Assembly (NCBI RefSeq): GCF_003334385.1
Contig: NZ_QOWN01000043.1
Origin: Escherichia coli
GTDB taxonomy: Bacteria; Pseudomonadota; Gammaproteobacteria; Enterobacterales; Enterobacteriaceae
Reading direction: 5' to 3' (one strand)
Length of the DNA stretch: 37,210 nt
Position numbers: made by a program. Below, in pieces: positions 3,001 through 6,000 of this stretch (positions are counted from its first letter, which is position 1; the number at the start of each line of letters is the position of its first letter).

Positions 3001-6000
3001 AAATTGCCGCATATCCGGCATTCCGGGGGGTAAATCTTTCGGCACAGGCGCATCCGGTACAGGTTGTGTGGCACCACAGTTCCAGTTAATCACTGGCGCA
3101 TCACCGTTCACATCCGACTCCCCTTCCAGATGAATGTGCGTACCGTTGAGAAATATGCTTCCGTCCTTCGTCAGCACCAGCCTTGCCTTACCACAGCAGA
3201 GTTCAAGATGCTCACCGGCAGAATAAACTGCTGTTTGTCCGGTGTTTTCCTTCATCGTCTTGCCCACCGAGAAGGTGACGTTATTCCCCACATTGACGCT
3301 GTAGCCCATTCCCACCATCAGTGATTTATGCAGCCCTACCTGTGAGGACTGCAACAACGCCACCGAGGTATTCATAATGCCGCCTACCGTCGTCTGGTAA
3401 GCCACACCCACCGTCAGCGCACGAATGATCCCCACCTTTTCAACCTGGTTTGATCCCACTTTGATAATCTGGTTACTACCCACCGTTTCCACCTGGTTGA
3501 CACCAACCGTCTGTATCTGATTAACGCCAATGTTCTGGATCTGGTTATTGGTAACGGTGATCGCCTGGTTGTTACCTATTTTTTCGGCATGGTTGTTTAT
3601 CACATCAGTGGTGCGGTTATTCAGCACCTCGGTGTTCATGTTCTTCTGCGCGTGGATGTAGACCTGTTCTTTCCCTGTCGCATCGTCAAACTTCAGTTCA
3701 TTAAACCCGCTGCCCTTATAGGTTTTCGAACGAATGGTCATCTGCGTCTTTGTTCCCGGCAGGCTGCCGGGTGTGCGGTTTTCCTGGTGGTAGGTGCGCC
3801 CCATAATGATCGGCTGGTCCGGATCGCCGTTGAGGAAGTCCACAATCACCTCCTGACCCACACGCGGTATCGCCAGGTTACCGAATCCGGTGCCTGCCCA
3901 CGCCTGTGCCACACGGATCCAGCATGAACTGTCCTGGTTTGACGGGTTATAACGGTCCCAGTTAAATTTCACCCGCACGCGGCCATGTTCATCACAGAAG
4001 ATTTCCTCGCCTGCCGGTCCCGTCACGACGGCGCTCTGCGGGCCGTCCACCAGCGGTTTCAGCAACGGCTGTGGCCGCCATGTCCGGTCTGCCGGTATTA
4101 CCGCAAAGTGGTTATTCAGCGTGGTTCCTGAACCACTGCGTCCCGGCACCGCCTGCGGCTGCTCGCCGTGCAGTTCACTTGCCACCACCTGCCATTCCCG
4201 GTTCAGGTTCGCCTGCGGATGCCCCGTCAGCACAATTCGCCGTCCCGGCCATATCTCCGGAGAACGGCTTGTTCCGCGCGCCACTTCTGCGTTGTTGCGC
4301 CAGCCATCCATCTGCCAGCGGGCAAAGTTCTGCCCGTGAGCACCCTTGAAACGTCCGGGGTAGTCATACACTTCATACTGTGTGCGCTGGTAATCCTGGT
4401 ACTGGCCTTCCTGATCAAAACGCCCTGCCCAGCCGGGTCGTTTAAAGGTGTAGTCTTTGGTCACCACGGAAGAAGGGCGGATTTGTGCGCTGTAGCGAAA
4501 CTGGCTGATGCAGAGGGTGCTTACCTCGGTACGGGTGTTCGGATTCCAGGGGATCTCAAAGGACTCCGGCAGATAACGCACGGTATCGCACAGGACCAGG
4601 CTCTGGTCGGTACTTTTTTGCGCGTGCTCCTCATAAAAGAAGATGCCTTCCTCCGCCGCCATCCGGCACAGGAAATCGTAATCAGTCTCACCGTACTGGA
4701 CACAAAACTCACGGGAAGGATGTGGCTCGCTGAACAGCGGGCTCCACTCGGTCACCCCGTTTTCCTGCAATATCGTGCCGAGGATGCTTTCGATGTCCTC
4801 ATTCTGGAAGATACGGAAGTTCTGGCGCAGCCCTGTGCGCCACAGCGGCGGGCATACCTTCATGCTGTACAGCTTCTGGTTTTTGTCGTTCTCCCCCAGT
4901 TCAAACCAGGTCACCACACCTTTCACCCGGCGCTGTACGTCATCGCCCTGCCATATCGTCAGGTAGGCCATTTTGTCGAGGATCTGCTGGAATTCAAGGG
5001 AGAGAAACTGCTGGCTGACCAGAGAGAGATCGAGGGAAAAAAGCGAAGAGAGTGACTGGTTCAGATGAAAGGAAACCACCGCAAAAGCATCCGGTGGCAG
5101 GCCGTCCACTTCCAGCGTGAAACGTAATCCGGTTGACATAGCAACCTCCGGGGTTAAGGAAAAACAGACAGTTCGCTGTTAAAGCGGCTGTGACAGTACA
5201 GTGTTACGCTTGCGTTCAGGCACGCTACCGCCGAAGTTTCCGGCAGCCGCCATCTCCCGTGAACGTAACCCCTTACTGACAACCTTTCTTTCTACGGCGT
5301 AATACAAAAACAGCATCCGGCCTGATAGCCGGATGCTGTTGGCTTAACTTATGCTTCCAGCGGTGCGCGCCAGTCGTCGGCACCGGAGGTGCCAGATTTG
5401 ACGTGTTCCCATTCAATTTTGCGGTAGGCCAGTGAAACTTCGAGCAACTGGGTGAACTCGCGTTTCGCCGGGTCCTGGCAATGCGGCATATGCAGTTTCA
5501 TATCGACAATCGTCGAATCAGTCAGGCGGGTAGTGAAATAATGCTCCTGTTTGCCTTCCACAGAGGTACGCCACCAGTGAAGTTCAGTGGTTGGCAGCAT
5601 TTCGCCGGAGGCCAGTGCGTTGTACATCAGCGGAACCGCTTTGTTCAGCGCCACGGTAAAAATGAAAGGCTTGTGAGCACGCTGACCCGCAGGCTGACCG
5701 GACTGAGGATCGGTCGGGACAGTAACGTTATGCAGGAATTCCTGCACCAGCATCTCGTCTTCGTGCCCCTGCACATAGATGTTGCCGACAGAATCAGCGG
5801 TAAATGCACCTGCAGTAATATTTCCCTGGGTCTGACCAGTGATGGAGATATAACACGGTGTTGGCATTTGTAAACTCCTTGTTAACGTGGTTAATTACTA
5901 CTTACAATGACCTGCCGTGAATCCCAGACAGGCAGATGCAGCTCACTTCACGGAACCGCATCATTTTCAGTATTTTTTACATACAAACCGAGCTAGAATT

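Follow-up and report, generated by a model that had tools for sequence, protein, structure and literature searches.

In the pap pilin operon, in malEFG and in the puf operon of Rhodobacter, the most abundant subunit is encoded first and is followed by a hairpin, and its mRNA is raised relative to that of the distal genes for minor components; several hairpins of this type act purely by differential mRNA decay and not by termination. In a T6SS, the tube needs hundreds of copies of Hcp, and the spike needs three of VgrG. The hairpins of pap, malEFG and puf are described as intra-operon terminators or stabilisers located after major-subunit genes (in part in PMC12503267). For Yersinia pseudotuberculosis T6SS4, mutation of a stem-loop after hcp4 lowered the hcp4 mRNA and left the downstream genes unchanged, and the authors reject termination for this loop and favour processing combined with 3' protection (PMC12503267). 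The closest described element, however, is the hcp-vgrG spacer of EHEC O157:H7 strain EDL933, which was published under the name "h3R" (Vazquez-Lopez et al., Microbiol Spectr 2026, PMC13141884). In the EDL933 wild type, RT-PCR gave products for hcp3 and for vgrG3 and none that spanned the two, and spanning hcp3-vgrG3 RNA expressed from plasmids was faint, being 'slightly present' in translated, strongly driven hcp3 constructs (PMC13141884). Deletion of region I of h3R, i.e. of the hairpin, gave rise to a spanning transcript, and deletion of regions I and II together did so to a greater extent; the same deletions left 6% of the hcp3 mRNA and about 50% of Hcp3 (85% at the chromosomal locus), and when they were made in a gfp-h3R-mCherry construct, GFP fell to half and mCherry rose twofold (PMC13141884). 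VgrG3 was not increased when a Lac or AraBAD promoter was put in place of h3R (PMC13141884).

The window analysed here (the whole stretch of DNA, 37,210 nt in length) is a part of an Escherichia coli chromosome with a T6SS-2 cluster that adjoins tRNA-Asp genes; the subtype name is taken from PMC13141884. The tube protein is encoded on the minus strand by hcp / tssD (5349-5867, 172 aa), an ORF that matches TIGR03344 at 1.7e-61, that precedes the hairpin discussed below, and that is annotated as Hcp family protein in records 100% identical to the window over 4900-5900. The first gene past the hairpin, likewise on the minus strand, is vgrG / tssI for the spike protein (2998-5139, 713 aa; ORF with a TIGR03361 match at 3.1e-189). 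Its start lies 169 nt beyond the hairpin, and its ribosome-binding region (5140-5149, minus strand) contains a GGAGG at 5149-5145, 5 nt ahead of the ATG, the position of which is conserved in our alignment. After vgrG follow the N-terminal 974 codons of an rhs core protein gene (1-2922, minus strand; NF041261 RHS_core, 1860 bits), which is cut by the left end of the window and which related records annotate as RHS element core protein. The identities of hcp, vgrG and rhs, as an earlier note on this DNA had given them, are borne out by these TIGR03344, TIGR03361 and NF041261 matches. The genes tssB, tssC and further genes lie on the plus strand and are divergent from hcp. The gene layout places the promoters that drive hcp in the intergenic region between hcp and tssB (5868-6561), which in EDL933 is a bidirectional, H-NS-repressed promoter region (PMC13141884).

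Read from the sequence of the minus strand, the hcp stop codon TAA occupies 5351-5349 and is separated by an 8-nt spacer, GTTAAGCC (5341-5348, minus strand), from the base of a hairpin of 32 nt and 14 pairs (5309-5340, minus strand), which was recovered by a terminator scan and by folding. In the minus-strand RNA, this hairpin consists of the 5' arm AACAGCAUCCGGCU (5340-5327), a loop of 4 nt, AUCA (5326-5323), and the 3' arm GGCCGGAUGCUGUU (5322-5309). The earlier note had reported a perfect 11-bp stem with a T-run right after hcp, on the minus strand and ahead of vgrG; its coordinates are correct, and this stem (CAGCAUCCGGC / GCCGGAUGCUG) forms the core of the 14-pair stem, in which two basal A-U pairs and a U.G pair closing the loop are added to it. 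Eight of the 14 pairs are G-C. The U-tract, UUUUUGUAUU (5301-5310, minus strand), begins with a run of five U (5310-5306), the first two of which pair with AA at the base of the stem and overlap the last two pairs of the hairpin, and the tail that remains after the 3' arm reads UUUGUAUU (5308-5301).

The spacer of EDL933 (264653-264861, 209 nt) differs from window positions 5140-5348 by a single mismatch, which corresponds to window position 5204 and lies outside the hairpin. Region I of h3R and the hairpin of the window are identical in sequence and belong to the same locus (T6SS-2 beside aspV), and the structure given in PMC13141884, located at +8 after the stop and consisting of 32 nt with 14 pairs, matches the one found here. 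The window strain is nevertheless not EDL933, since tssC is intact here and possesses an amber codon in EDL933; a search on the premature stop of tssC in O157 found no relevant literature. Because the EDL933 experiments used an identical hairpin, the terminator reading is already published, and the element is known from the literature for this exact hairpin sequence. Searched as literal strings, the sequences of the hairpin and of the block downstream of it gave no match in the literature text covered. The EDL933 evidence comes from end-point RT-PCR and from reporters. Read-through may be underestimated where reverse transcriptase has to cross a hairpin of about -25 kcal/mol, and the twofold change of the reporter is hard to interpret because a transcript without the hairpin is also less stable as a whole: a downstream reporter that only doubled fits a modest termination, or a compensation by lost stability of the upstream RNA.

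The centroid fold of the hairpin has an energy of -25.8 kcal/mol (z = -5.2, RNAfold), and none of 200 dinucleotide shuffles was equally stable. A consensus scan of positions 1-20000 ranks it first among 26 terminator-like sites, with 14 pairs vs eight for the runner-up, while such sites as a class are not enriched in this part (26 found vs 19.7 expected from shuffles). Over the whole window and both strands, it is among the top three hairpins by energy and the sole one of them with an uninterrupted stem. At random, a perfect inverted repeat of at least 13 bp with a loop of 3-8 nt is expected about 0.003 times per 37 kb, if equal base frequencies are assumed. The hairpin combines the properties by which intrinsic terminators are recognised, i.e. 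a G+C-rich stem within the usual length of about 5-15 pairs, a loop within the range of 3-8 nt, a 3' U-tract, a sense orientation after the end of a gene, and compensatory changes among relatives. Rfam 15 at gathering score matched only two tRNAs in the window, and a permissive Rfam search of 5050-5450 returned best E-values of 0.64-6.4, far under the gathering thresholds.

When species-representative genomes were searched with the Hcp protein, 80 loci at 81-100% identity were obtained; a hairpin was called in them if a single one with an energy of at most -12 kcal/mol and a T-rich tail started no more than 30 nt from the stop codon. Such a hairpin follows hcp in 49 of the 80 loci, against one in 80 for shuffled downstream sequence, none in 80 inside hcp and none in 69 one kilobase downstream; among the loci with vgrG as the next gene the count is 32 of 53. 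In the 49 loci with a hairpin, it starts 4-26 nt after the stop codon (median 10 nt). Dickeya, Pectobacterium, Providencia, Photobacterium and Aeromonas possess hairpins of unrelated sequence in the same place. Three Rahnella species, one Enterobacter and one Citrobacter have an hcp-vgrG gap of about 75 nt and no hairpin in it, and these hairpin-less relatives indicate that the arrangement is common, not obligatory.

Within E. coli, a second allele (MS7163, RMDEC465) has a different vgrG downstream and has kept the hairpin. In the MS7163-type allele, the stem displays two compensatory swaps, one from G-C to A-U and one from G-C to U-A, the loop is another one, and the T-run is the same. An alignment of 24 homologous hairpins of Enterobacteriaceae from about 12 genera shows pairing in 93% of the cells, compared with 35-59% when the partner column is slid. 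Counted as sequences and not as independent events, changes on both sides are present in 8 of the 14 pairs of these 24 orthologues, a value that none of 500 shuffles matched, and the inner 12 pairs contain 23 G.U against three A.C combinations. This excess of G.U over A.C points to selection on the hcp-sense RNA, and not on a DNA palindrome or on an antisense RNA. The T-rich tail is kept in all 24 aligned orthologues, and loop and flanks vary. PMC13141884 contains no cross-species conservation or covariation for h3R; the comparative data presented here indicate that the hairpin has long been under selection after enterobacterial hcp genes and is no peculiarity of EHEC.

We consider it very probable that the hairpin and its U-tract (5340-5301, minus strand) constitute a Rho-independent terminator at the 3' end of hcp, which also stabilises the hcp message. 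RNA polymerase would start in the divergent tssB/hcp promoter region and transcribe hcp; 8 nt past the stop codon the nascent RNA would fold into the 14-pair, G+C-rich hairpin, and the weak rU:dA hybrid in the U-tract would then lead most polymerases to release the transcript, at a site that the canonical model of intrinsic termination predicts within 5301-5310. The terminated hcp mRNA would end in the hairpin and would be shielded there from 3'-to-5' exonucleases, so that the net effect would be an increase in hcp output and a decrease in transcription into vgrG-rhs. Termination is likely to be incomplete, as a ribosome that finishes hcp can presumably block the closure of the stem base; a minority of polymerases would then read through and add to the transcription of vgrG-rhs.

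The terminator that the earlier note had proposed as decoupling hcp from vgrG-rhs is thus supported by the anatomy of the hairpin, by strand-specific covariation and by the EDL933 experiments on an identical hairpin. Its suggestion that attenuated read-through supplies vgrG transcripts is plausible, and its rationale of many tube subunits per spike would be a reasonable one; the same stoichiometry argument has been made for Yersinia hcp4, the loop of which is likewise rationalised by the high demand of the tube for Hcp (PMC12503267). The decrease of hcp mRNA to 6%, and of Hcp or GFP to about half, upon deletion of the region indicates that the hairpin also stabilises the message upstream of it. 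This role as a stabiliser had been overlooked in the earlier reading.

The hairpin after hcp shares its logic with those of pap, malEFG and puf, although the systems are different and the sequences unrelated. Acting as terminator and stabiliser, the element would explain how a single promoter region can supply plenty of tube protein and only small amounts of spike and toxin, and why a swap of the T6SS promoter in EHEC leaves the production of VgrG and Rhs-PAAR off. For the annotation of the window this means that hcp should be treated as a transcription unit of its own. The level of read-through, its tuning by translation and the role of the conserved block downstream of the hairpin matter for attempts to activate or engineer the T6SS-2 of E. 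coli.

This block is a non-coding stretch of about 90 nt that our alignments show to be conserved across genera (5194-5280, minus strand). It consists of a core of 42 nt (5217-5258) and of the arms of an imperfect 15-bp inverted repeat (5266-5280 and 5196-5210), and it is present in Escherichia, Citrobacter, Yokenella, Buttiauxella, Atlantibacter, Phytobacter, Lelliottia and others, whatever type of vgrG follows. Mean identity to the window is 89% in the block core, 60% at third codon positions of hcp, and 31-41% in the flanking spacer. The block corresponds to "region II" of EDL933 h3R, which contributes to the repression of vgrG3 in that strain (PMC13141884). The Rfam search of 5050-5450 provided no match for it; RNAalifold gave a weak consensus of -10.5 kcal/mol with one covarying pair, and neither the inverted-repeat model nor the single-sequence MFE model of the block showed an excess over shuffles on the measures of pair and pair type. 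Small ORFs in the spacer (e.g. 5179-5316, 45 aa) were rejected as coding regions, given that orthologues possess frame-breaking indels and one start codon is lost. The block is the sole part of the locus that might hold something new. Tentatively, hairpin and block may be two parts of one conserved control module, in which a terminator close to the stop codon, with a leak set by ribosome-polymerase coupling, is combined with a hitherto undescribed cis-regulatory block, which surpasses hcp in conservation among enterobacterial genera and gates the downstream cassette of vgrG and effector; we regard this extension as doubtful, and within it the block could be a candidate leader RNA, RNase processing site or operator.

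The vgrG transcripts may stem from read-through, from an unrecognised promoter or from RNA processing. The authors of the EDL933 study propose a separate promoter for vgrG3 (PMC13141884), and the hairpin could accordingly be an essentially complete insulator, with a monocistronic hcp, with vgrG-rhs transcribed only from its own promoter in region II, and with a read-through that has no physiological role. Prediction software indicates a promoter within region II (PMC13141884), and the block in the spacer is under strong purifying selection and could be a regulated promoter or operator. The promoter in region II is, however, a prediction, for which PMC13141884 reports no transcription start and no activity of a promoterless reporter. 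A sigma70 promoter between hairpin and vgrG was rejected in our analysis: the window spacer contains no sigma70-like site with 9/12 matches, and no such site with at least 8/12 matches occurs at one conserved alignment position among 14 orthologues. A sigma54 promoter in the spacer was rejected likewise, as the GG-N10-GC frame of a sigma54-like site is absent between hairpin and vgrG. The failure of the Lac and AraBAD promoters to raise VgrG3 in place of h3R, and the existence of faint spanning RNA from plasmids (PMC13141884), likewise speak against a complete insulation.

The 8 nt between stop codon and stem would predict leakiness as well. With a stop codon 5-9 bp ahead of it, the terminator tR2 of phage lambda fell from about 90% to less than 10% efficiency through the trailing ribosome, and 10-15 nt of RNA have to remain free for it (Li et al., NAR 2016, PMC4824070). 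The hairpin after hcp resembles tR2 in following a translated stop codon by only a few nt (5-9), but the lambda case is a synthetic RFP-tR2-GFP construct and the stem after hcp is much longer. By analogy, a stop-to-stem distance of 8 nt, within the range of repression by the ribosome, would favour a leaky terminator, and the apparent lack of a recognisable promoter between hairpin and vgrG, as judged from sequence, would favour it too. The faintness of the spanning RNA from translated, strongly driven constructs, on the other hand, argues against a strong repression of the terminator by ribosomes. On this balance, we regard an essentially complete insulator as possible, yet unlikely.

A terminator that also stabilises hcp, as preferred here, has further to be weighed against a stem-loop that does not terminate at all and only forms a barrier protecting the 3' end that is left when an endonuclease cuts a polycistronic hcp-vgrG-rhs RNA. 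The Yersinia loop is a relevant case for this view: it resembles the E. coli hairpin in being stable, in lying directly after the tube gene and in that its mutation lowers hcp mRNA, and the mutated stem lowered hcp4 mRNA alone (PMC12503267). It differs, however, in that this GC-rich hcp4-tssE4 loop has tssE and not vgrG as the downstream gene, and in sequence it is not homologous to the E. coli hairpin. The largest effect of the region I deletion in EDL933, the decrease of hcp3 mRNA to 6% (PMC13141884), would agree with a mere barrier, and processing could take place at the conserved inverted repeat further downstream. Against it, a conserved U-tract directly after the stem would be superfluous for a mere exonuclease barrier, and in EDL933 the spanning transcript became more abundant and the downstream reporter doubled once region I was deleted (PMC13141884). 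The conserved U-tract and the downstream effects in EDL933 argue for real termination here, unlike what was concluded for hcp4, and we judge a barrier without termination to be improbable.

Although the plus-strand RNA folds nearly as well (-24.9 kcal/mol) and the arm GCCGGATGC resembles a part of the E. coli REP consensus, an inverted repeat that acts at the DNA level or on the other strand, be it as a protein-binding palindrome, a REP-like repeat or an antisense terminator, or one that arose by chance, is so improbable that we exclude these readings, because the hairpin exists in a single copy per genome, because the tail on the plus strand, UUGGCUUAAC, makes a poor U-tract, at which no convergent gene ends, and because the asymmetry of the wobble pairs (23 G.U vs three A.C) indicates selection on the hcp-sense RNA, to which the free variation of the loop and the expectation of about 0.003 chance repeats per window can be added. 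A dispersed palindromic repeat of the REP / BIME type was rejected on the same count of one copy per genome, and further copies of the arm sequence within the window were none beyond chance. Of 5426 complete E. coli genomes, 2194 contain the 51-nt segment with the hairpin, each at a single site, and 2763 contain the whole hcp-vgrG spacer, again once each.

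The spacer between hcp (tssD) and vgrG carries, besides the terminator hairpin at 5309-5340, a non-coding block of about 90 nt on the minus strand (5194-5280, core 5217-5258), which lies between the hcp terminator and vgrG and was recovered by alignment in at least ten enterobacterial genera. Identity to the window amounts to 89% in the core of the block versus 60% at the third codon positions of hcp, and conservation of the block is independent of the type of vgrG that follows downstream. Its arms form an imperfect 15-bp inverted repeat. A search of Rfam with the block returned no match, a promoter search revealed no conserved promoter within it, and the test for covariation was not significant.

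Not all hcp-vgrG junctions are built in this way. In five of the compared loci (L021, L024, L025, L026 and L027), which belong to an Enterobacter MAG, three Rahnella species and Citrobacter sp. FP75, the gap between the two genes measures only about 75 nt and the terminator-like hairpin is absent; these short junctions represent an alternative layout of the gene pair, in which hcp and vgrG are apparently co-transcribed. A MAG contig labelled Citrobacter sp. (L006, DXKH01000078.1) is identical to the E. coli window in its hcp product, the hairpin and the motifs of the conserved block, which suggests that an E. coli contig was mis-binned or that the locus was transferred very recently. The hcp locus of E. 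coli 23CRST024 (L005, NZ_AP045783.1) is present in a degraded form: tssD is truncated and fused beside a piece of rhs, vgrG has been deleted along with the spacer, and both tssA and tssM are reduced to pseudogenes.

The codon at 8761-8763 in tssC reads CAG in the window, where the gene is intact (491 aa), versus TAG in the EHEC O157:H7 strain EDL933 (L086) and in strain 720632 (L001), leaving a TssC of 463 aa that lacks the last 28 residues. The O157:H7 genome PV15-279 matches the window exactly over the 41 bases around this codon, and among 2200 genomes no more than about 300 differ by one base in this 41-nt stretch. A literature search on a premature tssC stop in O157 found nothing. The shortened TssC could have a bearing on the absent secretion in promoter-swapped EDL933.

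At its far end the T6SS island features two tRNA-Asp(GTC) genes on the minus strand, spaced 8 kb apart (29132-29208 and 37135-37211, the latter cut by the window end), and a strong terminator-like hairpin (37128-37097) follows the second. A small plus-strand ORF of 74 aa (7097-7321) is located between tssB and tssC, and is annotated in strain 720632 and EDL933 as the conserved hypothetical protein WP_000123970.1.
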